A stretch of DNA of 64,000 nucleotides from Thermodesulfobacteriota bacterium (GCA_039715015.1 JBDLIE010000014.1:1-64000), one strand, 5' to 3'; counted from the first letter of the stretch, positions 16,767 through 63,339 are shown. The notes: a model not told the origin generated them from the letters alone. A program made the numbers and translations.

Positions 16767-17264
16767 TTAGAAGAGCTTGTGCCACTCTTCGACTTCGCTC
16801 TCAAGAACAACACCAAGACTTTTGGCATAGGCACTGAGCCTTTCCTGACTGCAGTTCACGCAGCACACCTCTCCCTTACAAACAACGGCATCATACTCAT
16901 GCTTGATAAAATTAACCAGGGCCTTTGCGGCCTGGGCTTGTACTTGGGAGATGTCAATATTTTCCTGATTGGCATATGATTTCAGACGCTGCCAGTTATC
17001 AGCACTGCGTTCTAAGCCGCGATAAATAGACATGCTTTTATTTTCAGGGCATAAATCACGGAGAACAATGGCATTATAACGCCGCACCACTGCTCTTTTG
17101 AGAATGCTAACTTCCTCTTGGCTCAAAGTAAGACAGGGCCCTTCATCATCCTTTGTCAGATAATAGAGTGCGCTGTGAAAAGCAACCTCAGGCATCTCAC
17201 CGCCATCGGCTAGCATGAATGCTTCATCATCTATTAACTCCTGACGGGGGACATCGTCACTCAT
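16767..17264 (-). CDS. Hypothetical protein
   Basis: 165 aa ORF with normal composition, co-directional with the LPS operon; no family recognised. Confidence 0.7.
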   Translation of the reverse strand: MSDDVPRQELIDDEAFMLADGGEMPEVAFHSALYYLTKDDEGPCLTLSQEEVSILKRAVVRRYNAIVLRDLCPENKSMSIYRGLERSADNWQRLKSYANQENIDISQVQAQAAKALVNFIKHEYDAVVCKGEVCCVNCSQERLSAYAKSLGVVLESEVEEWHKLF

Positions 17265-17509: not shown

Positions 17510-17537
17510 TAAAGCTGTTGGCGAATTGGGCCGATGA
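17510..17537 (+). promoter_or_regulatory. Putative sigma-28 (FliA) promoter
   Basis: TAAA-N16-GCCGATGA, close to the TAAA-N15/16-GCCGATAA consensus, about 90 bp upstream of an FlgO-like gene. Confidence 0.5.
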
Positions 17538-17629: not shown

Positions 17630-18265
17630 ATGTTAAGGCGCCTCTCCAACATACTGTTTTTCTTGTGCATCGCCTCTCTACCGGCCTGCACTGCTTTTAA
17701 CCAAAAAACCACGCCTCTGGCCACCAAACCAGCCATTGCTCCGCACCAGGAGGCAACCGGCCTTGTCCTTTCCATTGAGGCCATGGCTGCTGAACTCCTG
17801 ACGAACATGGCCGACCCAGACCCAGACAGCGGCGATATGGCCAATGGCCTGGTTGTGACAACCTTTGTCGAGAGCAGCAAGCTGCACAAAACTTCATCTT
17901 TTGGCCGCTATCTTTCAGAACAACTGATGAACGAATTCCAGCGCCACGCCTTTACCGTGGTTGAAATCCGCAAATCAACCTCTATCCGCGTTGAGGAAAA
18001 AAAAGGTGAATTCGGCCTGGCCAGGATTGAGGAAGAAATAGCACCGACAGTAAAAGCCGATGCCATGCTCACCGGCACCTATTTTGTCGGCAATGAGGAT
18101 ATCATTGTCACCGCCCGTATTTTAAACAATAAGACCGCTGCCCTGCTGGCAAGCTCAACGGTTATCTTTCCCAAAAACAGCTTAACCGGTCGCATGCTGG
18201 CGGACACTACCTCGGCAAACAAGGCTGCCCCGCCCCCCTTGTACTTAAAGCGGCTTGAGATTTAA
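17630..18265 (+). CDS. FlgO-family outer-membrane lipoprotein
   Basis: Lipobox-like LPAC. VVTTFV, TSSFGRYLSEQL, GEFGLAR, LTGTY, VTARI are FlgO-type motifs. Confidence 0.75.
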   Translation: MLRRLSNILFFLCIASLPACTAFNQKTTPLATKPAIAPHQEATGLVLSIEAMAAELLTNMADPDPDSGDMANGLVVTTFVESSKLHKTSSFGRYLSEQLMNEFQRHAFTVVEIRKSTSIRVEEKKGEFGLARIEEEIAPTVKADAMLTGTYFVGNEDIIVTARILNNKTAALLASSTVIFPKNSLTGRMLADTTSANKAAPPPLYLKRLEI

Positions 18266-18491
18266 AAGGATCGTAAAAGATAATGCGTTCTGAACGCTGA
18301 GCCGCCACCAGGCGGCTCGGCTTTATTGTTTCAAGAATTTGTAGCCATGCTCCCTAGCCATTACCGCAAAGGAACAAGGGCTCATACACAGGCCATGTCA
18401 TGCACGTTTATGCTGCCCCATGATACCTGGTAACAATAAAAAAATTACACCACATGCAGTTCATCTGCCTGCACCACATTGGGAGGACACA

Positions 18492-19463
18492 ATGAAAAAA
18501 AGAATCACTAAGGTATTTGCCGCGATCTCTCTGGTTTCACTGACCGGACTGGGCTGCTCACCGCTGATGGCCCAAGGAAATCACGGCCAAATAGCCGTCC
18601 AGATTAATGTTCCCCCGATCCAGACGGCCCAGGCCGATCCAACCATGGCCATCCTGCCGGAATCAGAAGCAGCACAAAAAGCACCGATCATGAGAAAAGA
18701 TGCCCCAGAAGAGAGGGAACAGACTGCCATTATTCCGGGCGCTCCCTATCCAGACCCACCAAGTAAGACGGCACCAGCATCTAAGCCGGGCATTGCTACC
18801 CAGCCTCCCCAGGGTGGCCCTGAATCCAGACTCAATTACGGTGCGCCAAGTGCTTATCTTGATCTTGCTGAAGAAGAGGCACGCCATCAGCAACGTCGCA
18901 GTCGTTACACCCCTGGCCGCTACCGGGTCTATCACTATATGCCTGATGCCTCTAGGACCATGGGCACCGAGGCCCTTCTCTCCGAGCTTTCTCGCGAGGT
19001 GGCAGGAAAGGTTTTCTATGGTCTCAAGGATGACGGCGAGAAAAACTATTCCGCACGGGTCGCCATTGTCGGCGCTGTGCCCCTTGCCGACCTAAAAAGG
19101 GAAACCGAGTTCGGCAGAATGATGGCCGAGTATCTCCTCACCGACCTTTCCGACCGGGGCCTTAAAGTCACCGAGCTCCGCCTGGGTAAAGAAATTAACA
19201 TCCTGGCCCAGACGGGCGAATTCATCCTGTCCCGCAATATCAATGAACTGGCCAACAACAACCAGGAGCTTGATTATGTGGTTGTCTCCACCTTTTCAAA
19301 CACCAGGAAAACCTTGGTCTTACAAGGTCGTCTGGTCAGTCTGAAAAATGGAATTATAAAAACTGCCTGGCGCTATACCCTGCCTCTAAACAGAGAACTG
19401 CTCGGCCTTTTCCACTCCATTGACCAGCCTTACACTATCGCTGTCAAGGGAATGGCAAACTAG
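18492..19463 (+). CDS. FlgO-family protein with Pro-rich N-terminal linker
   Basis: Signal peptide (LGC). TEFGRMMAEYL, GEFILSRN, VVSTFS, GRLV. SD GGAGG precedes the ATG at 18492. Confidence 0.7.
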   Translation: MKKRITKVFAAISLVSLTGLGCSPLMAQGNHGQIAVQINVPPIQTAQADPTMAILPESEAAQKAPIMRKDAPEEREQTAIIPGAPYPDPPSKTAPASKPGIATQPPQGGPESRLNYGAPSAYLDLAEEEARHQQRRSRYTPGRYRVYHYMPDASRTMGTEALLSELSREVAGKVFYGLKDDGEKNYSARVAIVGAVPLADLKRETEFGRMMAEYLLTDLSDRGLKVTELRLGKEINILAQTGEFILSRNINELANNNQELDYVVVSTFSNTRKTLVLQGRLVSLKNGIIKTAWRYTLPLNRELLGLFHSIDQPYTIAVKGMAN

Positions 19464-19472
19464 GAGAACACC

Positions 19473-20003
19473 ATGCTGAAAAAATTAAGCTCAAAATTGA
19501 CTTTCATTCTCCTGGCCCTGGCCATAATCACCATGCTTACGGCTCCTGCCCTCCAGGCCCAGGACCAGTCCGGAGGGGTACTCATGCCCTATCCCCCTCC
19601 ACCGGAACGAATCAATGCCCGGAGCTATTCCAACCTGTCGGAACTTATCACCCTGATCTGCGATGACGCCATGGAGGATTTCTGGGAGTTTTACGGCCCC
19701 ACGACCGTTGCTGTGCGGCCTTTCAGGGTTATCGCCAACTACAATGTTAAAAAGACCACAATCCTCGGCCTTACCTTGGCGGACCAGATGACGGCCATGA
19801 TCAATACCCAGGCTGTGCCCGAGTATCCCATTAGGGTCAAGTATCCGCAACAACTTGAAGGGGTAATTGAAGAAATCGATGGCTTTCTCCGGATCCACAT
19901 GAACGGCCGTAACGTCAGGGGTGAACGGCGCAGCTACGCCGTTACCGTTGAGATGTCAGACCCTATCTATCGGGCCCTGCACTCCTACGCAGAAAGTTAT
20001 TAA
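19473..20003 (+). CDS. Exported protein, divergent FlgO-like
   Basis: Signal peptide. VAVRPF and TTILGLTLADQM resemble the FlgO N-terminal segment. Confidence 0.5.
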   Translation: MLKKLSSKLTFILLALAIITMLTAPALQAQDQSGGVLMPYPPPPERINARSYSNLSELITLICDDAMEDFWEFYGPTTVAVRPFRVIANYNVKKTTILGLTLADQMTAMINTQAVPEYPIRVKYPQQLEGVIEEIDGFLRIHMNGRNVRGERRSYAVTVEMSDPIYRALHSYAESY

Positions 20004-20027: not shown

Positions 20028-22379
20028 ATGGCCGATAAAGATGCAGATTTTGACGAGTGGCTCGACGATACTGGAGACACTGCTGATGATCTAAGTCAAG
20101 ACCATATTGACGAGCTCCTCGGAGCTGTGGGCACAGATAAGAGTTCGCAAAAAGCATCTGCCACGGAAAAAGACAGTGGAGAGCTTGATCAGGACAATAT
20201 TGATGCGCTGCTAGGCTTAAGCGCTGACGATTCCTCCTCCCAGGCAACTGGCGAAGATCAGGCGATGACTGAGCTGGATCAGGACAATATTGACGCCTTG
20301 TTATCAGGGAATGCCTCTGCGGACAGTGGTGCCCATGCCGGAGGTCAGGATGATGACTCCTTGGAACAGGACAATATTGACGCTCTCCTCAGTGGCACGG
20401 GCTATGATACTGAAGCAGCAGATGATTTTAGTCTTGATGAGCTTGACCAGGACAATATCGATGCCCTGCTCAGCAGCGCAGAAGGTGAATCCGGTCCCGA
20501 CCTTGACGAACTTCCCGAACTGGCCCAGGATAATATTGATGCCCTGCTTGATGAAGCAGATCTCTCCGCAGAAAGCGCTGTAGAGGGCCTGGATGAGCTT
20601 GACCAAAGTGACATTGACGCCCTGCTCAGTAGTAATAGTTCTGCTGCTGCCGAACCAGATGAACTTGATGAACTCTTTGCAGGCAATAGTGTAGAAAAAG
20701 TTGTTCCACCTGAAGAATCTCCAACCGATGACCTTGGCGAACTTGACCAAAACAATTTTGATGCCTTACCCACCAAGACTACTCAGGAAGAGGAAAACAC
20801 ACCTGATGTCCAAGAACAAGAACCCGCTCCCCCTGAGGAAGACCCTGAGCTAAGCACCGAAGAGGCTGATAATATTGCGGAATCAGCCTTTGAATCCGAA
20901 CTTGACGAAATGGACCAACTCTTTGCCAATATTGATAGTGATGCCGGAGACGATGATCCTTTCCAGGCCGAAGAAATTGACTTTGCCGAAATGCTTGGCG
21001 AGACAGAGGGCGACGATCAGGAATTTATCGAACTTGAAGCTGACGATGGTCCCCAGGCCGCTGGGGATGACGACGAATTCATGAAGCAGGCCGGAGCTGA
21101 GGATGACAATGAGCTTGAGGCCCTGATGACCGAAGGAGAAAAAGGGCCCACCAAAAAGGCCTTAGTCATCCCGGCGCCTCTTGCCGAAATAAACAAAGGT
21201 GTCCTCACAGGTATCGTCGGTGGCGTTATCGTACTTCTTCTTATCGGCTCCTTTTTTCTCTTTTCCGGCTCCGATGAGGTCATAGAGACCAATAATGTAA
21301 AGCGCGTCGCCACTGTCGAACAGACTCCTGGTCGCAAGATGGCGGAGAACTTTATCCCTACAACTGAAGATGCCTCCTATGCCATGGGCAGCAAGGGTGG
21401 CGAACTTGCCATTGAGCTGACTGCTGCGGACCAGGACAAGCAACCACTGCTCTATGAAATAACGGCCCAGCCCCTCCATGGCAGATTATCAGGCACTGCT
21501 CCCATGCTTACATATCTTCCCGACAGCACCTTTGCCGGTGAAGATCGCTTTGAGTTCATCGTCAATGATGGCACAGATAGCAGTAGCGTTGCGGTGGTAA
21601 CAATCACTGGTCCTGATCTGGCCGCAATGGCCAAGAAAGAAACAGAAAAGAAAAAAGAAAAGGCCAAGAAAAAAATACTCAAACCCCAGAAACCGAAGGT
21701 GCTGGCTAAGGACGTAAAATATTTCACCATCAGTACCGGGGCCGTCACCATTGACTGGGGCCGCCTCTGGCAGGAAGCAAATTCCAGCCCCTATGTTCCC
21801 CAGGCGGTGCATGTGGAGATCGTTGGCAAGGCCGCCAAGGGTTCTTTGGTAAAGCATAATCGCACAAGCCACATCTATACTCCAGATCCCTTTGAAGCGG
21901 CCACTGACACCATACGCTATCGTTTTAAAAAGGGAGGCTTCCGTTCTGCCACCAAGACAGTGACCATCGATATTGAGCTTGGCAGCCCGGCTCCTGAGAT
22001 TAATTTTGCCAACCTTGCTGACGGCTACCTTGTTGGCCAAAATGTGGTCATAGATGCCAGCGGCAGCCGGGATGAGGCGCGGCAAAGCCTGCAATTCTTC
22101 TGGGAGCAGGTGGCAGGGGTTGAGCTTGACTTACATCCCATCAACAAAGAGGGCTCGCAAGTCGCTTTTACCATGCCCTCCTCCTTCTACACAGACCCAA
22201 ACCCAGGACCAACCCTTGCCGTTACTGCCGTGGATAAGACCGGCAAAGAGACCCGCAAAGAGATAAAGATTAAGGCGCTAAGCCGCCGCCAGACCGCCCT
22301 CTGGCGCGGAGAAAAAGGCAGGCTATCCCCGGATCCACCCATGGAGGGCAGCTACTTTCCCTGGCCCTTTGACGATTAA
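20028..22379 (+). CDS. Single-pass membrane protein: acidic N-terminal region with LxQxxIDALL repeats, then Ig/cadherin-like and PKD-like domains
   Basis: No signal peptide and an acidic repeat region. TM GVLTGIVGGVIVLLLIGSFFLF. PLHGRLSG..TYLP..GEDRFEFIVNDG (Big_9-like) and IDASGSRD..FWEQVAG (PKD-like). Confidence 0.8.
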   Translation: MADKDADFDEWLDDTGDTADDLSQDHIDELLGAVGTDKSSQKASATEKDSGELDQDNIDALLGLSADDSSSQATGEDQAMTELDQDNIDALLSGNASADSGAHAGGQDDDSLEQDNIDALLSGTGYDTEAADDFSLDELDQDNIDALLSSAEGESGPDLDELPELAQDNIDALLDEADLSAESAVEGLDELDQSDIDALLSSNSSAAAEPDELDELFAGNSVEKVVPPEESPTDDLGELDQNNFDALPTKTTQEEENTPDVQEQEPAPPEEDPELSTEEADNIAESAFESELDEMDQLFANIDSDAGDDDPFQAEEIDFAEMLGETEGDDQEFIELEADDGPQAAGDDDEFMKQAGAEDDNELEALMTEGEKGPTKKALVIPAPLAEINKGVLTGIVGGVIVLLLIGSFFLFSGSDEVIETNNVKRVATVEQTPGRKMAENFIPTTEDASYAMGSKGGELAIELTAADQDKQPLLYEITAQPLHGRLSGTAPMLTYLPDSTFAGEDRFEFIVNDGTDSSSVAVVTITGPDLAAMAKKETEKKKEKAKKKILKPQKPKVLAKDVKYFTISTGAVTIDWGRLWQEANSSPYVPQAVHVEIVGKAAKGSLVKHNRTSHIYTPDPFEAATDTIRYRFKKGGFRSATKTVTIDIELGSPAPEINFANLADGYLVGQNVVIDASGSRDEARQSLQFFWEQVAGVELDLHPINKEGSQVAFTMPSSFYTDPNPGPTLAVTAVDKTGKETRKEIKIKALSRRQTALWRGEKGRLSPDPPMEGSYFPWPFDD
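20085..20770 (+). repeat. Intragenic repeat array of about 8 copies of L[SDEA]Q[DSN][NHD][IF]D[AE]L(L)
   Basis: LSQDHIDELL, LDQDNIDALL x3, LEQDNIDALL, LAQDNIDALL, LDQSDIDALL, LDQNNFDAL. DNA core CAGGACAATAT[TC]GA recurs. Confidence 0.9.
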
Positions 22380-22422
22380 AAAAAAAGAGGGATGGAGCTT
22401 ACGGCTCCATCCCTCTTTTTTT
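22378..22422. terminator. Bidirectional intrinsic terminator
   Basis: A-tract-GAGGGATGGAGC-TTACG-GCTCCATCCCTC-T-tract between convergent genes. Confidence 0.9.
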
Positions 22423-36203: not shown

Positions 36204-38099
36204 TCACTTGGCCTTGATGGCCAAGCCCTTGGCCCGGTCGGTCTGGATGGCAAACTTAAAATTCTTACTTTTTGAGACAGTGGAGCCGCTAAAATCGGCA
36301 TTCTTGACATTGGCCCCCCGAAAATTGGCACCATCAAGAAAGGCGCCCTTAAAAAGTACTCCCACCAGCACTGCCTTTTGCATATCTGCCTTCTCCAAAT
36401 GGGCTGCCACCAGTTTAGCGCCCTCCAGATCGGCATTATTGAGCTGAGTGCCGCGAAGGTCAGCACCTTGCAGGCTCACCTTTTTCAGGTTGGCAGATGT
36501 CAAATTAGCACCGCGAAGGGCGGCCTTATCAAGGATTGCTCCGCGCAGATCAACATTTTTCAAGTTGGCCCCACGTAAATCAGCACCGCTCAAATCAGCG
36601 CCACGCAGATCAACTCCGCGCAAATCCATATTTTTAAATTTCACACCCTTTAAGTTTGCGGAGCGCAGGTTGACCTCTTTAAATTTGGTCTTAGTAAAAA
36701 GGGCCCCCTGGAAATCTCCCTCACTGAAATCGCATTTTTCAAGGCGCATCTTGCTCAAATTTGCCTTCCTAAAGTTGGAGCCCTGGCCCTCTATCCCCCT
36801 GGCAGAGGCACCAGAAAAAACCGCGCCGGAGAAATCAACGCCTGCGGCCTTCAAATCCACCAATTTACCATCAGTAAAGGTTGCCCCCCCAAAGTCGGCC
36901 TTTAACATAGAACTCTGTTGGAGATTGATACCGGTGAGCTGACAATTCCGGCAGTTGGCCTTATCCAGATTGCTTTCGCTAATCCGGGCACCTTCAAGAT
37001 GTGAGCCTGCCAGATCAACATCTGTCAGGGTAGAGTTGACAATGTTGCTGTTTTCTAACTGTGCTTTGGCCATTTGGGCCTTGGTCAGAGTAACTCCTGT
37101 GAGAGAGGCGTTGGTCATCTGACTCTGAGGCAATAGTGCCCCCGACAAATCAACATTGCGAAGATCACTGCCGTCAAGATTGGCATTACCAAGGTGGGCA
37201 CCAACGAGCTTGACTCCAGCACAGGAGATATCCCGTAGAAAGGCGAAGCGCAAATCAGCAGTGCCCAGATCGACATTTTTCAGGTAGGCATTATCAAAAA
37301 TGGCATTGCTGAAATCAGCACCATTCAGAGTTACATTTTTCAGATAGGCGCCGAAGAGATAGGAGCTGCGGGCATCAATGCCCGGAAGCTGGCTATCAAA
37401 AAGAAAGGCATGGTTGAGATTTGTTTCGACAAAGCGATTTTTCGCCGTATTGTCACTTTGCTGGGCAAGCTGCCGAAATGTCGCACCACCCAAATTAGCC
37501 TTGCTGAAATCTACTGCCGACAAACTGACGGAGAGCAAATCAAGACCATGGAGATCCGCTTTCACGAAGGAAGTCTCATTGAGGGTGACATCCTGCAGAG
37601 CACCGTTACTGATATCACTTCCGGAAAAGTTTACTTTACTCAGATTCGACTTCTCAATAAAAATACGCTGCAAGTTTGCCCGGCTTAAATTCGTGCCCAC
37701 CATTTTGCCCTCGCTGAAACTCATCCGATTCAGGCTTCCCCGGCGTAAGTCGCTGCCTTCAATGGCGACTTGTTCAAGCTTACTGCCACTCAGGTCGACG
37801 CCGACAAAGGAGGAGGAACTTAGATTACTGTCAAGGAAAAGGGCATCATCAAATTTAGCATTATCAAAACGGGCGCGAACCATAGTCACCTGAAAAAAAC
37901 GACTTCGGCTAAAATCATAATTTTTCAAACTTTTTCTGTCGAAATTTTTCTGCTGAAAAATTCTCGTGGTGGCAAGAATCGAGTCCACCTCGCTGGTTCG
38001 CATGCTCTCTTGCTCAGCATGGACAGCTGGGGCGTTACCCAGAAAAACAAGAAATAAAAATAGGAAAGAGTATGGCTTTAGATGAGCATGAATTCTCAT
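36204..38099 (-). CDS. Secreted long pentapeptide-repeat protein
   Basis: Signal peptide followed by almost continuous A[DN]L/Fxx repeats. Confidence 0.92.
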   Translation of the reverse strand: MRIHAHLKPYSFLFLFLVFLGNAPAVHAEQESMRTSEVDSILATTRIFQQKNFDRKSLKNYDFSRSRFFQVTMVRARFDNAKFDDALFLDSNLSSSSFVGVDLSGSKLEQVAIEGSDLRRGSLNRMSFSEGKMVGTNLSRANLQRIFIEKSNLSKVNFSGSDISNGALQDVTLNETSFVKADLHGLDLLSVSLSAVDFSKANLGGATFRQLAQQSDNTAKNRFVETNLNHAFLFDSQLPGIDARSSYLFGAYLKNVTLNGADFSNAIFDNAYLKNVDLGTADLRFAFLRDISCAGVKLVGAHLGNANLDGSDLRNVDLSGALLPQSQMTNASLTGVTLTKAQMAKAQLENSNIVNSTLTDVDLAGSHLEGARISESNLDKANCRNCQLTGINLQQSSMLKADFGGATFTDGKLVDLKAAGVDFSGAVFSGASARGIEGQGSNFRKANLSKMRLEKCDFSEGDFQGALFTKTKFKEVNLRSANLKGVKFKNMDLRGVDLRGADLSGADLRGANLKNVDLRGAILDKAALRGANLTSANLKKVSLQGADLRGTQLNNADLEGAKLVAAHLEKADMQKAVLVGVLFKGAFLDGANFRGANVKNADFSGSTVSKSKNFKFAIQTDRAKGLAIKAK

Positions 38100-38686: not shown

Positions 38687-40513
38687 TTACTGCTGCCACT
38701 GTGCATTCTTTTTGGCAGCCAACTTGTTACGGGGATTTACCTTCAAAGCCTTCTGCAAGGAGTGGATACTTTCGACAACCTTTCCCTGCTTGTGCTGGGT
38801 TACTGCCAGGTTGACAAGGGCCTCGTCAAGGTAAGGGGGCTTAAGAGCAACAACTTGGGTATACATCTTCTCAGCCTTCGTGTATTTCCCGGCCGAGGCA
38901 TACAGATAGCCAAGATTAAAATAGGCATCGGTTAATTTCGGATTCAACTCCAAGGCCCGTAGGTAGGCAGAGGTTGCCTTACGCGACTCATAGCGGGCCG
39001 AATAAATTTTGCCCAGGTAAAAATGAACCGATGCCACCTTGGGGTGACTCTTTGCCATATCGCTTAAATGGGTAAAGGCTTCCTTTGGATGATTTTTTTC
39101 AAGATAGCTGGCATGTTCATGGAGTTGCTCATTTTCAACGATCTTTATCTTACCAGCCTTGGCATTTTTCCGTATTTTTTCAAAAAAGAGGATGGCAGCT
39201 TCGTAGGATGCTTCTTCAAAACCGCTGTCCTTATTACTGTCTTGCAGCCTGTCTTGCAGCGAGGAATTTTCCAGTTTTCCTTTTACTGAGCTAACGGTGT
39301 CTGAAAGCTGAGCCTTACCGGTAGCGAACCAAGAGCCGAGCCTCTCCTGCACAGGACGGGTAAAGGAGGTATCAACAAAGAAGATTCCCACGACGACTAC
39401 GAAGGCAAGAGCTGCAAAGGTAACGAAAATTTTCTTTGGGTTCCACCTTTTTGGAGGGGCATTCAGGACTATTGTCTTATCCTCCTCACTAATATCATCA
39501 CTTTGCCCAGGTAGGGGCGTAGGGGTGGGAGGGGGGGTAACAGCCAGACCTGCAGTCTTGAGGGCCTTCTCTTCTTTTGCTGCTTCCTCGTGAAACAGCT
39601 CATGCATATAGGCCGCCATTTGACCACGGGATACCCGGACAGCCAGTTCTTGGGAACAGACCTCAAGGTCCAGGCGCATCTGCTCAGCAGACTGGTACCG
39701 GAGGGCAGGGTCAACGTGGAGTGCCTTATTGATCAAGGCGTAGAGGCTGGCAGGCAAGCCCTGCTTAACCTGTTCAGGAGGAGTAAACTCCGCCTTGCCT
39801 GCTTTAAGAAGAATCGTTTGTGATTCCCCGGTATAGAGACGTTGACCAGTGGCCAGTTCATAAAGAAGGATACCCAAAGCAAAAAGGTCGGAGCGAAAAT
39901 CAATCTCTTTCCCTGAGGCCTGTTCAGGCGACATATAGGCCAGTTTACCTTTTAAAGAACCGACATATGTGGTGGCATCATGGCTTGATGCTTTGGCAAT
40001 ACCAAAATCAATCAGCTTAATTTCACCATTATAGGTGATAAAAATATTCTGGGGCCCCAGGTCTCGATGGATAATTTTGAGAGGCTCCCCAGAGAAATCC
40101 TTGAGATTATGGGCATATTGCAGGCCGTAGCAGATCTGGGGCAGGATGTAAAAAAGGGAAAGAGCAAGCTTAAGAGGTTTTGACTCGTCCTTGGATTTTT
40201 TTAAGACGGTTTTAAGGTCAACGCCGGAGAGATATTCCATGGAGATGAAAAAGGTCTCTGCCATCTCACCGAAATCATAGATCTGAACAATATTGGGATG
40301 TTGGAGAAAGGCGGCAAGGCGGGCCTCATCGATAAAGGCCTTGACAAACTCATCCTGATCAACAAGGTGGGGAAGAATTTTCTTAATGGCAACAATCTTT
40401 TCAAAACCTTGGGCACCAATAATCTTGCCTCGAAAGAGCTCGGCCATACCGCCCCGTGCTATCCGGTCAAGGAGAAGATACTTCCCATATTTTTCAGGCT
40501 TAAATTCTACCAT
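38687..40513 (-). CDS. Hanks-type Ser/Thr protein kinase with TM helix and C-terminal TPRs
   Basis: GGMAE, VAIKK, HRDL, DFG, YMSPE, SDLF. TM after a Pro-rich linker. TPRs (AYFNLG..Y). Confidence 0.93.
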   Translation of the reverse strand: MVEFKPEKYGKYLLLDRIARGGMAELFRGKIIGAQGFEKIVAIKKILPHLVDQDEFVKAFIDEARLAAFLQHPNIVQIYDFGEMAETFFISMEYLSGVDLKTVLKKSKDESKPLKLALSLFYILPQICYGLQYAHNLKDFSGEPLKIIHRDLGPQNIFITYNGEIKLIDFGIAKASSHDATTYVGSLKGKLAYMSPEQASGKEIDFRSDLFALGILLYELATGQRLYTGESQTILLKAGKAEFTPPEQVKQGLPASLYALINKALHVDPALRYQSAEQMRLDLEVCSQELAVRVSRGQMAAYMHELFHEEAAKEEKALKTAGLAVTPPPTPTPLPGQSDDISEEDKTIVLNAPPKRWNPKKIFVTFAALAFVVVVGIFFVDTSFTRPVQERLGSWFATGKAQLSDTVSSVKGKLENSSLQDRLQDSNKDSGFEEASYEAAILFFEKIRKNAKAGKIKIVENEQLHEHASYLEKNHPKEAFTHLSDMAKSHPKVASVHFYLGKIYSARYESRKATSAYLRALELNPKLTDAYFNLGYLYASAGKYTKAEKMYTQVVALKPPYLDEALVNLAVTQHKQGKVVESIHSLQKALKVNPRNKLAAKKNAQWQQ

Positions 40514-41542: not shown

Positions 41543-42340
41543 ATGAAGCATAAAAAACACCATTCAAAACTGGCCTGCCTATTAATGGTAAGCCCCATTT
41601 TATTGGCATTATTTGCCCTGGGTACACCAGTCCAGGCTGCCGGCTTAATGCAGGATGACTGTGTCAAATGTCACGAAACCGCGCCCAAAGACATCGCCAC
41701 CAGTGGCGAGGCCCACAGAACAGAGTTCACCTGTGTTGAATGTCATGACGGTCATCCACCTGTTTCAGGTGACGACATAATTCCCAAATGTAGCCAGTGC
41801 CATGAAGGAAGCTCTCATTTCAAACTCGACAACTGTTCCTCCTGTCATAACAACCCGCATACGCCATTGGTAATCTCTATTGATAACAACCTCACCGAGC
41901 CCTGCCTGACCTGTCATACCGACCAGATGGCCCAGCTCCAGCAACATGAAAGCAAGCATACCCAAGTCAACTGCTCTACCTGTCATCGCGATCGACATAA
42001 GATGATCCCTGACTGTATGCATTGCCATTCACCACATAGTAAAGAGATGGTCCAGAAAGACTGCCTGACCTGCCATAAGCCCCATATGCCGCTGCAAGTT
42101 ACTTATCCTGCCGACATACCGTCGACCAGCTGCGCCAGCTGTCATGCGGATGCCATGTCCCTCCTCCAGGCCAACCCAGCTGCCCATGCGAAGATCTCCT
42201 GCGCTACCTGCCATCAGGAAAAGCATAAGATGATTCCGCAGTGCACCTCCTGTCACGGCGAGCCCCATCCGGAAAGCATGCACAAGAATTTCCCCAAATG
42301 CGGTCAATGCCATGGCATAGCCCATGACTTGAACAAATAA
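41543..42340 (+). CDS. Periplasmic dodecaheme cytochrome c
   Basis: Signal peptide and 12 CxxCH motifs arranged as three tetraheme repeats. Confidence 0.93.
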   Translation: MKHKKHHSKLACLLMVSPILLALFALGTPVQAAGLMQDDCVKCHETAPKDIATSGEAHRTEFTCVECHDGHPPVSGDDIIPKCSQCHEGSSHFKLDNCSSCHNNPHTPLVISIDNNLTEPCLTCHTDQMAQLQQHESKHTQVNCSTCHRDRHKMIPDCMHCHSPHSKEMVQKDCLTCHKPHMPLQVTYPADIPSTSCASCHADAMSLLQANPAAHAKISCATCHQEKHKMIPQCTSCHGEPHPESMHKNFPKCGQCHGIAHDLNK

Positions 42341-49919: not shown

Positions 49920-50672
49920 ATGCGCCTCTTTCTCTCCTCTCTTGTCCTCCTCTCCCTGCTCTTTTGCCTGCCCGGCTGCACCGATCAAACAAAGCCCAAA
50001 ATAACCGTCCTTGCCGGCCGGGGCCTAAAAAAACCAATGGAGGAGATACGCTCCGCCTTTATCAACAAACATGGCTTCGAGGTCCACATCGTCTATGCCG
50101 GCTCCAGCACTCTCCTTGACACCATGAAGAAATCAAACAGAGGAGACGTTTTTATCCCAGGCTCTCTCTATACCCTTAACAAGGCCGGCGACATGATCGT
50201 TCGTCATGTGCCGGTGGCCCTCCATACCCCGGTGATTGCCATTTCTTCTAAAAACCCTCTAAAACTGGAATCACTGGCGGATCTGGCCAAGGACAAACTC
50301 CGACTGGGGATCGCCCATAAAGAGATGGCAGCCCTGGGCCGTACCAGTGAAGAGATCTTTGCCGCTTCGCCCCATGGGAAAAAGATTATGAGCAATGTTA
50401 TTATAAAGGCCCAGAATGTCACTGTGCTCCTTGCTCACCTGGTCAATGATGAGTTGGACGCGGCCATTATTTGGTCTGACATGCTTCTCTGGCCCGAATC
50501 CCAAGGCGTAACGTTCTTTGCCATCCCACCCCAATTTAATAAGATTAAAAAAATCCATGCCGGGCTGCTACGGCAGAGTACAAATCCAAAAGCAGCCTCT
50601 CTTTTTGTTGATTTTATGTCCCAACAAGGCCCAGCTGTTTTCCAGAAACATGGTTTTGAGGCAATACCATGA
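49920..50672 (+). CDS. ModA-like molybdate/tungstate-binding lipoprotein (no modBC nearby)
   Basis: [47 protein letters not shown]. Confidence 0.8.
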
Positions 50673-53392
50673 AGCTGCGCCACAAGATCTTCTTCAGTTT
50701 TCTCCTTGTCGCCCTTTTTATTGTGGTCCTCGCCTCTGGAAGCATTATCGTCCAGAACCGCCTTACCACTCAAATCGAAAAAATTGCCGGCCAGCAATTA
50801 CCAGGTACCGTGGTGATGACCCAGCTCTACGCTGAACTCTTCGAGATCAGAGCCCTGCTGTCACGCTATGGCATCTCCCAAGAGCAAGAGGTCAAAGAAA
50901 AGCTTGAAGGAGCACTTATCGAATTGGCCCAGACGCGCACCGTCCATCTCATTTTCCACGGTCATCATCAGGCTCACCTTTCTGAGACGGAAGATATTCT
51001 CGATCATTTTACCAGTGAGATCAGCAAATTCATCCTCCTTAAGGAAAAAGGGGCCAGCCAAGAGGAGCTTTTGCGGGTGGAGACAAAAATAGACCTCCTG
51101 GCCAACATCTATGCTGAATTTGCCGAGCCGATCATCAACAACATGATGGAGGACTCTCGCCAGACCATTGCCTCTACATTAAAGCAGGCCAAAACGTCCG
51201 CTCATATAATCCTTGCCCTCAGTTTCGTTATCATGGGGCTGGCTATCATCTTTTCCCTCCTTATGACCCGGCGCATCGCCACCCCGGTCCAGAGGCTCAA
51301 AGAGGCTGTTCTGAACATTGCCAAAGGAGAGCTTGATGTTCAAGTTGAGGCTGGCTCCCGGGATGAAATTGATGAGCTGGGCACAGCCATTAATACGATG
51401 AGCAAGGACCTTCAGGAGATGACCATCTCCCGCGATGCCTTTGCCAAGGACGCTCTGGAAAAGGCCAGACAGGCAGAAGCCGCCTCCCGCACCAAGAGCG
51501 AATTCTTAGCCAGCATGAGCCACGAAATCAGGACGCCGATGAATGCTATTCTCGGTATGGCTGACCTCCTCTGGGATTCTTCCCTTGACCCTCAACAACG
51601 GCGCTATGTGGAACTCTTTCGTTCAGCGGGCGAAACCCTCTTGACCCTGCTTAATGACATTCTTGATATTTCCAAGGTGGAAGCAGACAAGCTGGAGATT
51701 GAGTCTTCAGGATTCGACCTCTGCCAAGAGGTGGGCAAGACATGCTCTGTCATGGCTCTGCGCGCCCATGAGAAAGGCCTGGAGCTGATGACCAATGTAA
51801 GAAAAGATGTCCCTGTCTGGGTAATAGGCGATTCAAATCGTTTACGGCAAGTCCTGGCCAATCTCCTGGGAAATGCCATCAAGTTTACAGAACAGGGCGA
51901 GGTGGTTGTCGACGTCACCAAAGAGACCTTGCGTAAAGATGGCGACAAAGAGATTGTTGAGGTTCTCTTCAAGATCTCGGACACCGGCATAGGCATTCCA
52001 GAGGATAAACAAAAAATAATCTTTGAAGATTTCACCCAGGCCGATGCATCCACTACCCGCCAGTATGGCGGTACAGGTCTCGGCCTTGCCATTTGTAAAA
52101 AACTGGTGGAGAAGATGGGGGGCTCTATTGCCCTGACCAGTAAAGAGGGGCAGGGCAGCTCGTTTTCCTTCTCCTTATCCTTCCAATTTCTTCCTGAAGT
52201 CGAAGGAGGGGGCCAGGAATCCATGCCCATTGTTGACCTCACCGGGATAAAGATTCTGGTTATCGACGACAATAGCACCAACCGTCTCATTCTCCGTCAT
52301 GTTCTCCAGGAAGAAGGTGCTGAAGTCCACGAGGCGGCCAGCGGGGAAAAAAGTCTTCTACTTCTGGATGAGGCCTGGACGAAAAACCAGCCCTTTGACC
52401 TGCTCCTCCTTGACGGACGGATGCCGGGCATGGATGGCTTTAGGGTGGCTGAACATCTTAGCAATCACCCGAACAGTGCGAATCTAACTATTATGATGCT
52501 CACCTCCGACAACCAGACAGATAATATTGACCGCTGCCAGACCCTGGGCATTGACCAGTATCTCGTCAAACCGGTGCAGCGCCCGGCCCTGCTGGAGAGT
52601 ATTGCCAAGGCCTTATGGGATAAAAACAAAGCAGAACCCCCGGCAGACCAACCCGCAAGCCTTCAGACAAAACCATCAGGCCCCTGCCGCATCCTGATGG
52701 CCGAAGATTCGAAGGATAACCAGTTTCTGATTAAGGCCTTTTTGGAAGGGACGCCCTGCGTGCTTGATATTGCTGAAAACGGGGTGCTGGCCGTGGAGAA
52801 ATTTATCTCTGGCCGCTATGACCTGGTGCTCATGGACATCCAGATGCCACGCAAGGACGGCTATGAGGCCAGCCGTGAAATCCGCCAATATGAAGCAAAG
52901 ACAAACCAACCGCCAACACCAATCATCGCCCTCACCGCCCATGCCCTTAAGGAGCATCGTCAAAAAAGTCTGGAGGCCGGTTGTGATGACCACCTCACTA
53001 AGCCGGTAAGAAAAGAAACCCTGCTGGCCACCCTGGCCAAATACAATAAAATCCCCATGGCCCATAACGATCCTCAAAATGCCTCTGCCGGCAGTGGCCT
53101 TCAAACCGTGATCGTTGAAGAGTACCTGCGCAAACTGATCCCCAAATACCTGGACAACATCCGGCAGAATCTAAACCTGATCAAGGAGGCCGTGGACCGC
53201 CGGGACTTTGAAGAACCCCGCATCCTCTCCCACAACATGAAGGGGACCGGTGGCGGTTATGGTTTTGATAAGATCAGTGAGATAAGTAAAGAAATGGAGG
53301 AAGGCGCCAAGAAAAAAGAAGCTAAAACAATCCATAATTGTCTTGCAAAACTTCGGGACTATTTGGACAATATTATTATTGAATACCAATAA
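50669..53392 (+). CDS. Hybrid kinase TM-HAMP-HisKA-HATPase-REC-REC-HPt
   Basis: [28 protein letters not shown], two REC domains, HNMKGTGG HPt motif. Confidence 0.95.
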
Positions 53393-53421
53393 TCCCGATC
53401 AGATCAGCCAATTGCCACGCC

Positions 53422-54420
53422 ATGACTTTCAACAACAAAGCCATTCTCGTCATTGACGATTCCTTTGATAGCAGGACCCTTATCTGCCATATCCTCCGGC
53501 AGGCAGGCTACACCAATATTTTGGAGGCAGATTCGGCCCGCCAGGCCTTTGAAATTTTAGAGGGTCCAGAGATCTCCAGCGGCCTCTATGCAGATCTGGA
53601 TCTCATCCTGCTCGATATCGTTATGCCTAATATGGACGGCATCACCGCCTGCATCAAACTTAAGGCTTTGCCCCAGACCTCTGAGGTGCCCATCATCATG
53701 GTGACGGCAGACACCAAGGATGACAGCCTGCAAAATGCCTTTGACCAAGGGGCCATGGACTATGTCAACAAGCCGATTAACCGGGTGGAGCTCTGTGCCC
53801 GGGTCAAGTCGGCCCTGCTTCTCAAGCATGAGATGGACAAACGTAACGCCCTGACCAAGGAGCTGGAAGCAGCAAATAAAATCCTGCAACGCACGGCGCT
53901 CACCGATGGCCTCACCGGCATTGCCAACCGCCGCTATTTTGATAAATTTCTTGAAAAGGAATGGCGCCGCTGCCGCCGCGAGCAGCACCCCATCACCCTC
54001 TGCCTGGCCGATATTGATTTTTTCAAGGCATATAACGACAGCTACGGTCACCTTCTGGGTGACGATTGCTTACAAAAGGTGGCCACTCTGCTGGCCACCA
54101 ATATCAAAAGACCGGCAGATTTGGTATCCCGCTACGGCGGTGAGGAGTTTGCCATCATTCTTTCTGAAACCTCTGAGGTCGGGGGCTGCGCCGTAGCCAA
54201 GAGGGTGATGGCCACCCTGAAAGCACGCAACATTCCCCATGAACACTCAGAGGTGAGCGACCGCATTACCCTGAGCTTCGGGGTGGCCGCCCTCATTCCT
54301 AGGGCAGGAACTGCAGTCCACGATCTTGTTGCCAAGGCCGACAAGGCCCTGTACGAGGCCAAAAACATGGGCCGCAACCAAATCAGCTGCTCTTGCCTGA
54401 AAGAAGCGGGCCAGCTCTAG
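53422..54420 (+). CDS. REC-GGDEF diguanylate cyclase
   Basis: REC domain, TDGLTG, DIDFFK, RPAD I-site, RYGGEEF. Confidence 0.95.
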   Translation: MTFNNKAILVIDDSFDSRTLICHILRQAGYTNILEADSARQAFEILEGPEISSGLYADLDLILLDIVMPNMDGITACIKLKALPQTSEVPIIMVTADTKDDSLQNAFDQGAMDYVNKPINRVELCARVKSALLLKHEMDKRNALTKELEAANKILQRTALTDGLTGIANRRYFDKFLEKEWRRCRREQHPITLCLADIDFFKAYNDSYGHLLGDDCLQKVATLLATNIKRPADLVSRYGGEEFAIILSETSEVGGCAVAKRVMATLKARNIPHEHSEVSDRITLSFGVAALIPRAGTAVHDLVAKADKALYEAKNMGRNQISCSCLKEAGQL

Positions 54421-54504
54421 AATTCGCCACCAAAGGCGTATCTGACTACCTTCGCACTGTAGGCATTACAGCAATATCCCCCCTGTGCAGGAGAACCGCT
54501 TTCT

Positions 54505-54570
54505 GTAGGAGCCCGGTCTCGGGGCGATAAGAAAGGCGGTCTATTCAGGCAGCCGGCCATATCGCCCGAG
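54505..54570. repeat. GTAG REP doublet with truncated right unit
   Basis: GTAGGAGCCCGGTCTCGGGGCGAT ... ATCGCCCGAG, after which homology stops. Confidence 0.75.
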
Positions 54571-54790
54571 TTTTCAGCGATGTGATCCTGGCCGGCAAAA
54601 CCGGCCTTCAACTTGCGGAAGGGCTTTCCGGGGCCGATCCGCATTTAAAAATACTGTTAACCAGCTGCCCTACCGATAAGAAATCCCAGATGCCCCTGAT
54701 TAAAGAAAAGGGCCCCCCTTTTCTCCCCAAAAACCGTATGACATCATGACCTTCTTGAAAAAAATTAAAGAGACTCTGGCCTCCTCCTGA
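54570..54790 (+). pseudogene. C-terminal receiver-domain remnant with a frameshift
   Basis: VFSDVILAGKTGLQLAE..PHLKILLTS..KEKGPPFLPK / PYDIMTFLKKIKETLASS*, with no N-terminus. Confidence 0.75.
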
Positions 54791-54818
54791 GACAAGAATT
54801 CTTTTGAGACCCTGGATT

Positions 54819-56975
54819 ATGACAGTTAAAGCCTCAAGAAATATCAGCAGCCCCAAACGTTTTCTGCTTATTACCATCCTCACCTGGTCCTCTTGCGTGC
54901 TCATCGCCTGGTTTATGATTTCGATCTCAGGGCAGCGTACCCAGGTGGAGCACACTGCGATCCATGAAGCGCACAGTTTTCTTGCCGCTGACCGGACATT
55001 CCGCCTCTGGGCAGCCAGCCACGGCGGGGTCTACGTGCCTTCCAGCTCAAAAACCCCTCCCAACCCTTACCTCGCCCACATACCTAATCGAGACCTATCC
55101 CTGGACAACGGCAAGGGCCTTACCTTAATGAACCCAGCCTATATGCTGCGCCAGCTTCATGAGGAGTACAGCGAGGCCTTGGAGCTTCGGGGCCATATCA
55201 CCAGCCTGGATCCCATTCGGCCGGAAAATGCCCCGGCAGACTGGGAAAGGCGGGCCCTGGGAACCTTTAAGACAGGAAATGAGGAATTTGTCGAATTCAC
55301 CAAAGTCGACGGCCACGAGTCCCTGCGGATGATGCAACCCCTGGTCACCCAGGAAGGATGCCTCAAATGTCATGCCCATCAGGGCTATAAGGTTGGCGAT
55401 ATCAGGGGAGGTATCAGTATCACCTTTCCCCTCACCGAATTATGGAATGAGGCCAGGCAACATAGAATATATTGGAGCCTCTCCCTTCTCCTTCTCTGGC
55501 TCCTTGGCCTTGCCGGCATCTGGTTTTCCAGCCGGAGGATTATTGCCGAAATAGAGGCCAAGGATGAGGCCTACGGCGAACTGGAAATATACCAGCACAC
55601 CCTGGAGCAAAATGTCCGGGATCGAACCAAGTCGGTGGAAGAGGCCAATGCCCAGCTTGAAGAGGAGGTGGAGGAACGGGCCAAGATCCAGGACGCCCTG
55701 GAGAGTTCCCACGGTGAACTGGAGCAGATCTTCAACTCAGCGGCCGACGGCATGCGCATTGTCGACTGGGACCATAACGTCATTAAGTTCAACGACACCT
55801 TTGCCAGGATGGCAGGGGGAAGCCGTCTGAGCCTGGGCGGCCGCAAATGCTATGAGATCTTCCCAGGTCTCCTCTGCCACACCGAGGAGTGTCCACTGCA
55901 AGAGGCCAGAAATGGCGAGAAAGCGACATCCCGCGAAACCATCAAAACCTCCCTGGATGGCAACACCATACACTGTCTCAGCCAATCCACTATTTTTTAC
56001 GATTCGGCAGGCAGCCCCATGGGCATCCTGGAAAGCTTCCGTGACATTTCCGAATTCAAAAAACTTGAACAAGAGCTTTCCGAAGAGGCGGCCCGCACAG
56101 CTCAGCAGGCCGTGGAGCTGCAACAAAAAAATACCGATATCATTAGCCAGAATGTTGAAATAGAACAGGCCCTGCACGAGTTAAAGGCAACCCAATCCCA
56201 GATGCTGCAAAATGAGAAAATGGCCACTGTGGGCCAGCTTGCTGCCGGGGTGGCCCACGAGATCAACAACCCCACCGGCTTTGTCACCTCCAACCTCTCC
56301 ACCCTGGAAAAATATGTTCAGCGCATTACTGATTTCCTCGACAAGCTGGCAGAAATGGTACCAGCGGAAAACGAGGAGGAAATCAGCAAACTCCGTAAAA
56401 AAATGAAGATCGATCATATCACCGAGGATATCCACGATTTAATTGAGGAGAGCCTGGACGGTACTGAACGGATCAAAAAAATTGTCATGTCCCTGAAAAA
56501 CTTCTCCCGCCAAGACCATGAGGAGTACGGTCAGACAGACATTAACGACTGCCTGGATTCCACCTTGAACGTGGTCTGGAACGAACTCAAGTATAAGGTC
56601 ACGGTGGACAAGGAGTATGGTGAACTACCACTGACCAGGTGCTACGCCCAGCAGCTTAACCAGGTATTCATGAACCTGCTGGTCAACAGTGCCCAGGCCA
56701 TTGAAGAGCAGGGGGTTATCACCATCAAGACCTGGACAGATGATGCAAAAATATTCATCTCTGTTGCCGACACCGGAAGCGGCATGGATGAAGAGACCAT
56801 GGCCCGCATCTTTGACCCCTTCTACACCACCAAGGGAAAAGACAAGGGCACCGGTCTGGGCCTCAGCATTGCCCACGACATCATCACCAAAAAACATCAT
56901 GGCCGACTCTGTGTGGAAAGCCGCAAAGGGCAAGGCACCACCTTTATAATTGAAATCCCGGTGGTTGAAGAGTGA
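54819..56975 (+). CDS. Sensor kinase with periplasmic heme-c (DUF3365/Tll0287-like) domain and PAS
   Basis: HGGVYV, MNPAYM, PENAPADWE, CLKCH..GY.VGDIRGG; PAS; GQLAAGVAHEINNP. Confidence 0.9.
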   Translation: MTVKASRNISSPKRFLLITILTWSSCVLIAWFMISISGQRTQVEHTAIHEAHSFLAADRTFRLWAASHGGVYVPSSSKTPPNPYLAHIPNRDLSLDNGKGLTLMNPAYMLRQLHEEYSEALELRGHITSLDPIRPENAPADWERRALGTFKTGNEEFVEFTKVDGHESLRMMQPLVTQEGCLKCHAHQGYKVGDIRGGISITFPLTELWNEARQHRIYWSLSLLLLWLLGLAGIWFSSRRIIAEIEAKDEAYGELEIYQHTLEQNVRDRTKSVEEANAQLEEEVEERAKIQDALESSHGELEQIFNSAADGMRIVDWDHNVIKFNDTFARMAGGSRLSLGGRKCYEIFPGLLCHTEECPLQEARNGEKATSRETIKTSLDGNTIHCLSQSTIFYDSAGSPMGILESFRDISEFKKLEQELSEEAARTAQQAVELQQKNTDIISQNVEIEQALHELKATQSQMLQNEKMATVGQLAAGVAHEINNPTGFVTSNLSTLEKYVQRITDFLDKLAEMVPAENEEEISKLRKKMKIDHITEDIHDLIEESLDGTERIKKIVMSLKNFSRQDHEEYGQTDINDCLDSTLNVVWNELKYKVTVDKEYGELPLTRCYAQQLNQVFMNLLVNSAQAIEEQGVITIKTWTDDAKIFISVADTGSGMDEETMARIFDPFYTTKGKDKGTGLGLSIAHDIITKKHHGRLCVESRKGQGTTFIIEIPVVEE

Positions 56976-57970
56976 TCATGGCCCCTGAACAACTTCATAC
57001 CCTGCTCATTGTTGATGACGAGCCGCAAATCATCAGATCGGTGAGCCGTCTCTTTCTTGACGAGCATCTCAATATCATGGCGGCCAGCAGTGGCGAAGAG
57101 GCCCTGGACCTGCTTGGCGACCATGAGGTGGCGGTGATGCTCACCGACCACTGCATGCCGGAAATGACCGGCCTTGAGCTCCTTAATGCCGCCAAGAAAA
57201 TCTCACCCGATACGGTGCGCCTGATGATGACCGGCAATGCCGACCTGCAGGTAACCATCAAGGCCATTAATGAAGGAGAGGTGTATCGTTTTATTGTCAA
57301 ACCCTGGCACAATCAAGAGCTGATCACCATGGTCATGGAGGCCTTAAACCGCTTTCAGCTCTCAAGGGCATTGCATAGCTCTGACGAGCGCACCCTCCGC
57401 TCTCTGGCCCAGACCATAGAACTTAAAGACGTCTATACCCGGGGCCATTGCGACAGGGTGGCCCATTACGCCCTGCTGCTTGCCGATGTCCTTGGTTTTA
57501 ACGAAAACCGTCAAAAGCTTGTCCGCCACGGCTGCTGGCTCCACGATTGCGGCAAAATCGGCATTCCCGGCGCTATCCTTAATAAGGAGGGAAAGCTGAG
57601 TGACGATGAGTTTGACATCATTAAGAAGCATCCTCTCTGGGGCATGAAGGTGGCTGAGGAAGCAGGCCTGGACCAGGTGATCCTCGACATTATTGTCGGC
57701 CACCATGAACGTTTTGACGGCAGAGGCTACCCCCATGGAATTTCCGGGGAAGAGATCCCCCTTGAAGCGCGGATCACAGCCATTGCCGATGTTTACGACG
57801 CCCTGACCACGGACCGTTCCTACCGCAGCCGCTTCAGTCACGCCAAGGCCCTGGAGATTATGACCAATGAACGGGGCAAGGCCTTTGAGGAGGAACTTTT
57901 GGACCTCTTTTTTGTAATTCTGGAGGATGAAAAAAATAGAGTAGCACCGGAAGACTCTTCGGCCCAGTAG
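56972..57970 (+). CDS. REC-HD-GYP c-di-GMP phosphodiesterase
   Basis: YTRGHCDRV, LHDCGKIG, HHERFDGRGYP, IADVYDAL. Confidence 0.93.
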   Translation: MIMAPEQLHTLLIVDDEPQIIRSVSRLFLDEHLNIMAASSGEEALDLLGDHEVAVMLTDHCMPEMTGLELLNAAKKISPDTVRLMMTGNADLQVTIKAINEGEVYRFIVKPWHNQELITMVMEALNRFQLSRALHSSDERTLRSLAQTIELKDVYTRGHCDRVAHYALLLADVLGFNENRQKLVRHGCWLHDCGKIGIPGAILNKEGKLSDDEFDIIKKHPLWGMKVAEEAGLDQVILDIIVGHHERFDGRGYPHGISGEEIPLEARITAIADVYDALTTDRSYRSRFSHAKALEIMTNERGKAFEEELLDLFFVILEDEKNRVAPEDSSAQ

Positions 57971-58039
57971 GAGCCCGCCCCCTGCGGACGAAAAATTCTA
58001 TATACCCACACCTATCGCCCGCAGGGGGCGGGCTCCTAC
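57967..58039. repeat. GTAG REP doublet overlapping the HD-GYP stop codon
   Basis: GTAGGAGCCCGCCCCCTGCGGACGA ... ATCGCCCGCAGGGGGCGGGCTCCTAC. Confidence 0.85.
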
Positions 58040-58073
58040 TGGGTGCCACCCTATTTTAACAAAAAGCGCTTAT

Positions 58074-59708: not shown

Positions 59709-59718
59709 CGAGGACCCT

Positions 59719-61759: not shown

Positions 61760-61796
61760 CCAGACATTTCTTTCTGCTTAGCAACTCATTTGATTT

Positions 61797-61921: not shown

Positions 61922-61981
61922 GGCATTGTGCTTTCAGTGGCAATCGCAATTTATTCAACTTAGGAACAAGCGGGTTACAAA

Positions 61982-63310: not shown

Positions 63311-63339
63311 AAACTCACCCCCCTCACTCCCGGGATGGA

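Follow-up and report, generated by a model that had tools for sequence, protein, structure and literature searches.

We analysed an open reading frame on the forward strand, at positions 20028..22379, of a 64,000-nucleotide stretch of DNA (the window) from a Thermodesulfobacteriota bacterium (GCA_039715015.1 JBDLIE010000014.1:1-64000). It encodes a predicted single-pass inner-membrane protein of 783 amino acids, referred to below as the repeat protein. It is an undescribed flagellar protein in which a known type of binding peptide, that of FliM, has been turned into an array. Its layout, its gene cluster, a promoter-like site, and a distribution in which the gene is present and lost together with the flagellum identify the repeat protein as a late, FliA-class accessory of one Desulfobulbales flagellar system. 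The flagellar assignment, taken alone, is very likely correct. As to function, the explanation that we favour, with a confidence that falls a little short of an even chance, is that of a late flagellar envelope accessory that tethers phosphorylated CheY (CheY~P) near the motor.

From its N- to its C-terminus, the repeat protein is characterized by a conserved acidic motif, DxWLDD (residues 9-14; 20052..20069, +), in which D9, W11, L12, and D14 were at least 90% conserved among 54 sequences; an array of seven LxQxxIDxLL copies spaced 26-31 residues apart (residues 22-200; 20091..20627, +); the motifs DExDQLF and FxAEEIDFAExL, taken from the alignment consensus (residues 293-323; 20904..20996, +); one transmembrane helix (residues 392-414; 21201..21269, +); and three Ig/cadherin-like domains, with a helix at 531-547 (residues ~444-750; 21357..22277, +). 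The original prediction, made from the sequence, counted about eight LxQxxIDALL copies. Seven were found to be strict (L-x-Q-x-x-I-D-x-L-L, starting at residues 22, 53, 83, 112, 139, 165, and 191), six of them ending in IDALL and one in IDELL, while the eighth, LDQNNFDALP (from residue 239; 20742..20771, +), is degenerate. A chance origin of the motif was rejected by a shuffle test on residues 1-390 (n = 100,000), in which one copy arose in 17 shuffles and two or more in none. The same region contains 124 D/E (32%) versus 11 K/R.

The 783 amino acids, the acidic N-terminus, the single membrane helix, and the Ig/cadherin-like domains announced in that prediction were borne out by the reading frame, hydropathy, Pfam, and AlphaFold2. 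Pfam returned Big_9 (E 1e-14) and Cadherin_5, both at residues 444-527, and AlphaFold2, run with the 54-sequence alignment, produced confident beta-sandwich domains at about 445-527, 560-650, and 655-750, all located after the membrane helix, which spanned residues 390-413 in the model. The N-terminus was modelled as disordered, with each repeat forming a short helix (predicted local distance difference test, pLDDT, of about 50-65). The top Foldseek rows were cadherin and Ig chains with 7-14% identity. PKD-like domains had also been proposed, and these found no Pfam match in the repeat protein; PF22352, which we take to be a PKD-like family, was listed only for some homologues. A PDB sequence search with the repeat region gave a single, unrelated match (E 0.16). 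For residues 1-420, the ESM Atlas gave one unnamed cluster at 0.75, from which no family could be named, and structure rows with TM scores all below 0.2, one of them automatically named FimV.

The repeats most likely face the cytoplasm and the Ig domains the periplasm, because a hydrophobic N-terminus was absent (no signal peptide in the repeat protein, whose only hydrophobic segment is the helix at 392-414, nor in any of the 66 family members) and because K/R residues within 25 positions of the membrane helix were in excess before it (more in 43 of the 66 members, fewer in 10, equal in 13). A periplasmic N-terminus, which would have spoken against a CheY scaffold, is thus not indicated. Since the Ig domains of a single-pass inner-membrane protein would be periplasmic, the suggested sensing of surface contact is unsupported, and the same topology led us to reject a surface adhesin or contact sensor.

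A protein search returned 66 full-family members, including the query, plus one TPR protein; the source names of the members point to Desulfobulbaceae, Desulfurivibrio, and Thiovibrio, and cultured carriers include Desulfurivibrio dismutans AMeS2, Desulfurivibrio sp. D14AmB, and Hydrosulfovibrio ferrireducens CB1MN. The motif is conserved among these homologues: 64 of the 66 contain 2-11 copies, and every copy lies before the membrane helix. The two members without copies are probably fragments, given their much shorter N-termini. We scanned for repeat cores with a pattern that did not require Q, which gave 382 cores with, at successive positions, L in 72%, D in 76%, Q in 90%, D/N in 86%, I in 89%, D in 99%, L in 100%, and L/F in 99%, corresponding to the consensus [ED]-L-D-Q-[SDA]-[DN]-I-D-A-L-[LF]. 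The residues L, D, Q, I, D, L, and L/F are kept at fixed repeat positions and the linkers diverge freely, which points to a binding surface.

The C-terminal 229 amino acids, used as a query, detected the gene in 101 of 201 genomes belonging to the order Desulfobulbales, essentially in single copy. Phylum-wide, this one query matched 7 of 401 genomes, six from the same order and one, elsewhere, with a weak partial match. A whole-protein profile search against 1.84 billion representatives was dominated by giant multi-Ig proteins and added little. The original prediction did not recognise a described family, and literature searches, from which subscription journals were mostly absent, returned no paper on this protein family or on tandem EIDAL arrays.

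The repeat-protein gene is the last of a cluster with the conserved order flgO1-flgO2-X-repeat-protein gene, all on the forward strand. flgO1 (17630..18265) encodes a secreted FlgO-domain protein of 211 amino acids (Pfam PF17680, E 3e-31), whose lipobox-like Cys is absent in many homologues, as judged from the N-termini of 26 of them. flgO2 (18420..19463) encodes a second secreted FlgO-domain protein (PF17680, E 3e-25), which, according to homologue starts, likely begins at its second Met (18492). X (19473..20003) encodes a protein of 176 amino acids with a signal-like N-terminus that belongs to no known family: it had no Pfam or NCBIfam match, and, as a candidate third FlgO paralogue, it aligned to FlgO by hhalign with a probability of 1.9%. 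By VIA, its best Z was 6.2 (root-mean-square deviation 3.9, 95 aligned) to LpoB-C, below the bar of Z 8; any likeness to the LpoB/TolB-N fold is thus weak, and FlgO was not among the fold matches. No FlgP or FlgT match was found among the cluster genes. Between the repeat-protein gene and the convergent rpe, an A-tract, a 12-bp stem, and a T-tract form a hairpin (22380..22422), read from the sequence as a probable terminator.

Synteny with FlgO, which had been proposed for testing, was confirmed. Both FlgO genes lie upstream in 20 of 20 loci drawn from across families, with X in 18. Of the 77 named loci, 58 extended at least 3.3 kb upstream; 57 of these contained FlgO1 and FlgO2 and 54 contained X, and the only locus without FlgO1, FlgO2, and X belongs to an unrelated Hydrogenedentota TPR protein. 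The two sets are not independent, because they were drawn from overlapping collections. Copy number ranged from 1 to 8 among the 58 loci. A DUF7826 gene (16767-17264, -) is divergent from the cluster in most relatives. Another pair of FlgO-domain genes is located on the flagellar contig (G000:C21:36175-37889), about 12 kb from fliL.

Upstream of flgO1, at a distance of 120 nt, lies a FliA (sigma-28)-type promoter, TAAAG-N16-CCGATG (17510..17536, +). We examined the 60 of the 77 loci that had a FlgO1 match and 450 nt upstream, plus the window, and TAAAG-N16-CCGAT was found with at most one mismatch in all 61 regions and exactly in 50. The same search gave a mean of 2.8 (maximum 7) over 30 base shuffles and 1 on the reverse strand, and the genome-wide rate of the site was 0.009 per 330 nt. 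The site, with its 16-nt spacer and one mismatch, also occurs 200 nt before the genome's own flagellin gene, and it is found before cheZ and before a gene that we read by inspection as MotA-like; fliA is encoded in the genome's own flagellar cluster. E. coli FliA promoters have the form TAAAG...CCGAT in the part of the source that lists them (PMC4183435, Table 2). A sigma-54 promoter was rejected, as the consensus pattern appeared in 1 of the 61 upstream regions. Since the intergenic gaps in the cluster are 154, 9, and 24 nt and contain no internal promoter site, we infer that the four genes are co-transcribed; they would then form one transcript made with flagellin and CheZ.

The sample of 201 genomes links the gene to one class of flagellum. 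FliM was detected in 155 genomes and fell into two score classes: class A (102 genomes, of which 100 at E 1e-51 or better and two, G110 and G060, lower-scoring and placed by family) and class B (53 genomes, all from families f6, f16, and f17). The class-A FliM N-terminus reads L[ST]QDEVDALL in the 8 of 8 sequences read; in class B, the Q is replaced by K and the D by A in all 10 readable sequences out of 12 fetched. With the C-terminal query, the repeat-protein gene was found in 99 of the 102 class-A genomes and in none of the 53 class-B genomes; in G012, the N-terminal half of the gene lies at a contig end, raising the class-A total to 100. The misses were G193 (75% complete) and G036 (91% complete), the latter with the usual neighbour rpe followed by another gene. 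Only 2 of the 46 genomes without a FliM match had the gene (86% and 73% complete), and both had class-A FlhG. CheZ was matched in 78 of the 201 genomes, with no match in f6, f16, or f17. The order has two flagellar classes, and class B shows no match to this CheZ, with some genomes lacking a CheA match as well. Nor was CheZ matched in f7 (0 of 16 genomes) or f12 (0 of 3), two families that have the repeat-protein gene; the gene therefore needs no CheZ detectable by that query.

It is the losses within class-A families that make this co-occurrence informative. The gene, FliM, and FlhG are jointly missing from G061, G185, and G005 (97-99% complete), and from 10 of the 12 genomes of family f15. 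At the empty site of G061, DUF7826, which is kept there, and rpe lie about 700 nt apart and all four cluster genes are gone; no FlgO match was found in G061, G185, or G005. Five genomes without the gene keep CheA (G061, G028, G065, G079, and G100), which shows that the gene follows the flagellum and not chemosensory systems in general. Together with the promoter, these losses substantiate the flagellar link that had been proposed for the protein.

To describe what the repeats may bind, we compared them with FliM, FliY, and CheZ. They share with the FliM/FliY EIDAL peptide the spacing L-x-Q-x-x-[IV]-D-A-L-L and the short helix in a disordered chain; FliM, however, has one copy on a C-ring protein, and the repeat protein has 1-11 copies on a membrane anchor. 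The likeness to LSQxEIDALL claimed earlier holds for the spacing, the Q, and the D, whereas the Ser and Glu of the genome's own FliM peptide (LSQDEVDALL) are mostly replaced by D and by D/N, respectively. Of the residues that define FliM-N and CheZ-C peptides, the repeats have L, Q, an aliphatic residue, D/N, and two hydrophobic residues at fixed spacing; they mostly lack the EIDAL Glu, which is also missing from the lineage's CheZ tail. This tail reads L-D-Q-x-[TA]-V-N-x-M-L in each of the 30 loci that were read, from among the 78 genomes matched by CheZ, so that the two have in common the LDQ head, the absence of Glu at position 5, and the hydrophobic 6/9/10 pattern, and differ in VN..ML versus ID..LL. 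The repeats thus appear to join the LDQ head of the lineage's CheZ tail to the IDALL end of FliM. CheZ likewise has an acidic disordered tether, but the repeat protein is many-copy and membrane-bound. Identity with FliM, FliY, or CheZ was rejected, as their own domains were not matched in the repeat protein: there was no CheC-like middle domain, SPOA, or CheZ match, and the true fliM and cheZ lie on contigs C21 and C57. Without the catalytic four-helix bundle of CheZ, no phosphatase activity is expected. The cheZ gene (G000:C57:14941-16488; L080) lies in a 516-codon frame in which two Pfam-matched parts are split by a long insertion, an arrangement conserved at about 500-640 codons across class-A genomes.

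The tail helix of CheZ is described as a CheY-binding surface in the accessible text of one study (10.1101/607010), and FliM D12 is reported to pair with CheY K119 in an excerpt of another (10.1101/781468); the Asp equivalent to D12 is retained in 99% of the cores. The original prediction favoured CheY docking, and a complex prediction of the flagellar CheY with residues 128-160 gave it weak support, with a score of 0.36 versus 0.01 for the best control, at least 88% of contacts in agreement between runs, and a partner pLDDT of at least 56. Of 78 solved complexes, 51 attained the pass mark used, as did 2 of 108 mismatched pairs; passes at a score of 0.60 or under came from only 5 of the 78 solved complexes and comprised all 4 passing mismatches of 180. 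Because CheY-peptide complexes have already been solved, the pass may reflect likeness only, and it does not indicate which member of the receiver family binds, many receiver domains being encoded in the genome.

The prediction missed FlhG as a second candidate. The FliM EIDAL peptide, which binds CheY~P, is also described, in passages of the cited studies, as necessary and sufficient for binding of FlhG (10.1101/2022.04.21.489128, PMC6946799, PMC12826062), and, according to a section of the first of these, the V. alginolyticus FliM-E9K variant disturbed chemotaxis and left FlhG polar. The repeats could then be FliM-N mimics for this MinD-like ATPase, holding it at the finished motor or pole as a feedback on flagellar number, like HubP of Vibrio. 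We consider this unlikely, though only moderately so. It agrees with the polar FlgG-independent reading of E9K, with the presence of class-A FlhG in all 101 genomes with a match to the gene (most with 2-3 FlhG-like matches, versus mostly 1 in class B), and with a HubP/FimV query that found no other match in the genome. The FliA-type promoter suggests expression after the basal body has been placed, which argues against such a role and fits poorly with the polar landmark placing the flagellum that had also been suggested; moreover, the LDQ head of the repeats is that of the CheZ tail, a CheY binder. In two genomes, G371 (15 repeats) and G483 (9 repeats), a FliL-like array protein is encoded directly after flhA-flhF-flhG-fliA with no adjacent cheY, which would suit FlhG, but CheY and CheA are encoded elsewhere in both. 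Two further FlhG/MinD-like ATPases, 38% identical to FlhG and located outside the flagellar cluster (G000:C8:45281-46063 and C12:62300-63358), are candidate partners.

The general layout is reminiscent of the membrane-tethered acidic scaffolds HubP and FimV which, in the available parts of the sources, are single-pass inner-membrane proteins with long, acidic, disordered cytoplasmic regions of imperfect repeats and periplasmic anchoring domains (PMC12918733, PMC8789113, PMC11236974). The topology of the repeat protein is reversed, as had been noted, with the acidic region first and no signal peptide. It also lacks LysM (Pfam and NCBIfam scans; its folded parts are three beta-sandwiches) and a C-terminal FimV/TPR match (its C-terminus is a beta-domain followed by a coil), and it is tied to one flagellar system with a late-type promoter. 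Identity with HubP/FimV was rejected based on the topology, the LysM, and the FimV TPR. A HubP-like function, in which generic acidic amphipathic helices recruit ParA/ParC-type ATPases, other receiver domains, cyclic di-GMP enzymes, or C-ring parts, seems improbable to us. It draws on the imperfect acidic repeats of the disordered HubP tail (described in parts of PMC12918733 and PMC8789113); on P0214, a protein named FimV at source with three near-identical motifs plus many Q-less DPDDIDALL copies; on P. putida FimV, whose polar position is stated, in the text available, to need a periplasmic Ig-like domain; and on the many receiver domains among which the complex model does not discriminate. 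However, Q is kept in 90% of the repeats, unlike in most P0214 copies, the gene tracks the flagellum and not CheA, and relatives without a flagellum appear to manage without it, which would not be expected of a general pole organiser.

Conservation is highest in the periplasmic part (25 of the 29 invariant alignment columns lie after residue 440), and repeat number varies from 1 to 11. Both observations would suit a structural strut from the inner to the outer membrane, built with the FlgO proteins, in which the acidic tail is a spacer or a self-associating mesh without a specific partner. As a complete explanation this is decidedly unlikely, since fixed repeat positions amid diverging linkers point to a binding surface; a strut role can coexist with the tethering of CheY~P. 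In the portion of the source consulted (PMC13521929), FlgO of V. cholerae is described as forming, with FlgP, a ring of the motor at the outer membrane. The two FlgO-domain genes of the cluster, above the Pfam cut-off, recall the Vibrio H-ring (FlgO/FlgP/FlgT), from which the cluster differs by the absence of FlgP and FlgT matches and by the lipid Cys missing in many FlgO homologues; no such inner-membrane repeat protein is described in the passages on the H-ring that were available.

Several points weigh against a late flagellar accessory that tethers CheY~P. The EIDAL Glu position is E in only 7% of the 382 cores (D in 51%, N in 35%), which counts against CheY given the reported effect of FliM-E9K, and binding of FlhG by the same FliM peptide, as described in the cited passages, means that CheY is not the only candidate partner. 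Gene content cannot separate the two, because both accompany the gene (flagellar CheY in 5 of 5 gene-positive genomes checked directly). The class A/B split follows family lines and so is not independent of kinship. G036 has class-A FliM and no match to the gene, and weak FlgO matches remain in two non-flagellated genomes, G028 and G072. Finally, the promoter spacer is 16 nt, one base longer than the 15 nt of the E. coli flgMN row in the table seen (PMC4183435), and scoring the whole genome with a weight matrix yielded 86 matches at the cut-off used, many of which have no gene start close by.

A search with residues 18-205 returned 93 proteins. Beyond the family, these included proteins with 6-15 copies before a transmembrane helix followed by FliL-like or TPR domains, as well as the FimV-named P0214; the FliL-like domain was above the Pfam cut-off in P0232 and below it in seven others. 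P0232, P0240, P0221, P0067, and the proteins of the G371 and G483 loci all have tandem xQxxIDALL motifs in an acidic N-terminus and then one transmembrane helix, but they come from other lineages and carry a FliL-like or TPR periplasmic part where the repeat protein has three Ig domains. No characterisation of the FliL-like or TPR array proteins was found in the searches made. Proteins with a transmembrane helix, TPR, and 7-15 motif copies (L164:5950-9282, P0067, P0207, and P0221) include two named Hydrogenedentes, and the neighbours of the L164 gene are not flagellar. The genome also contains, right after cheY (L001:2817-3740, -; G000 contig C21), a gene for a protein of 307 amino acids with an acidic N-terminus bearing W/F motifs, one transmembrane helix, and a C-terminus that we read as FliL-like and that had no Pfam match; the gene after fliA in G371 and G483 encodes the same layout, but with FliM-like repeats.

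Under the favoured explanation, the repeat protein would be made late, with flagellin and CheZ. Its three periplasmic Ig-like domains would reach the co-encoded FlgO-domain proteins, which may encircle the motor by analogy to the Vibrio H-ring, and this contact would fix the repeat protein beside the basal body. Each cytoplasmic repeat could form a short amphipathic helix on the CheY~P face used by FliM-N and the CheZ tail. With 1-11 of these sites, the long acidic tether would keep CheY~P close to the C-ring, serving as a local reservoir or buffer by which switching is tuned. More broadly, and more tentatively, membrane-anchored tandem arrays of CheY-binding peptides may be an unrecognised, repeatedly evolved part of the flagellar motor, in which lineage-specific periplasmic modules, Ig domains with FlgO in this family and FliL-like or TPR domains in others, bind the motor and a multivalent CheY~P reservoir beside the C-ring sets switching sensitivity outside the receptor-kinase-phosphatase circuit; we regard this wider proposal as rather doubtful.

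Elsewhere in the window, a secreted-looking protein of 631 amino acids (36204-38099, -) consists almost wholly of pentapeptide repeats, with family matches below cut-off except for one short domain model. Other genes encode a Ser/Thr kinase with a transmembrane segment and a C-terminal TPR region (38687-40513, -) and a secreted protein of 265 amino acids with about 12 CxxCH motifs, probably a multiheme cytochrome (41543-42340, +). Positions 50669-63990 (+) hold a long run of hybrid kinases, receivers, one GGDEF protein, and HD-type output proteins; several of the kinases belong to a single type.

In chemotaxis models, receptors, CheZ, and FliM are connected by diffusing CheY~P. If the favoured explanation is correct, a protein at the motor that offers up to eleven FliM/CheZ-like docking sites would act as a local buffer or concentrator of CheY~P, with repeat number as a tunable variable. 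If the partner is instead FlhG, the protein would represent a new route of flagellar-number control in a genome that shows no HubP. The four genes of the cluster are candidates for parts of a so far unstudied motor, in a sulfur-cycling group with cultured members.

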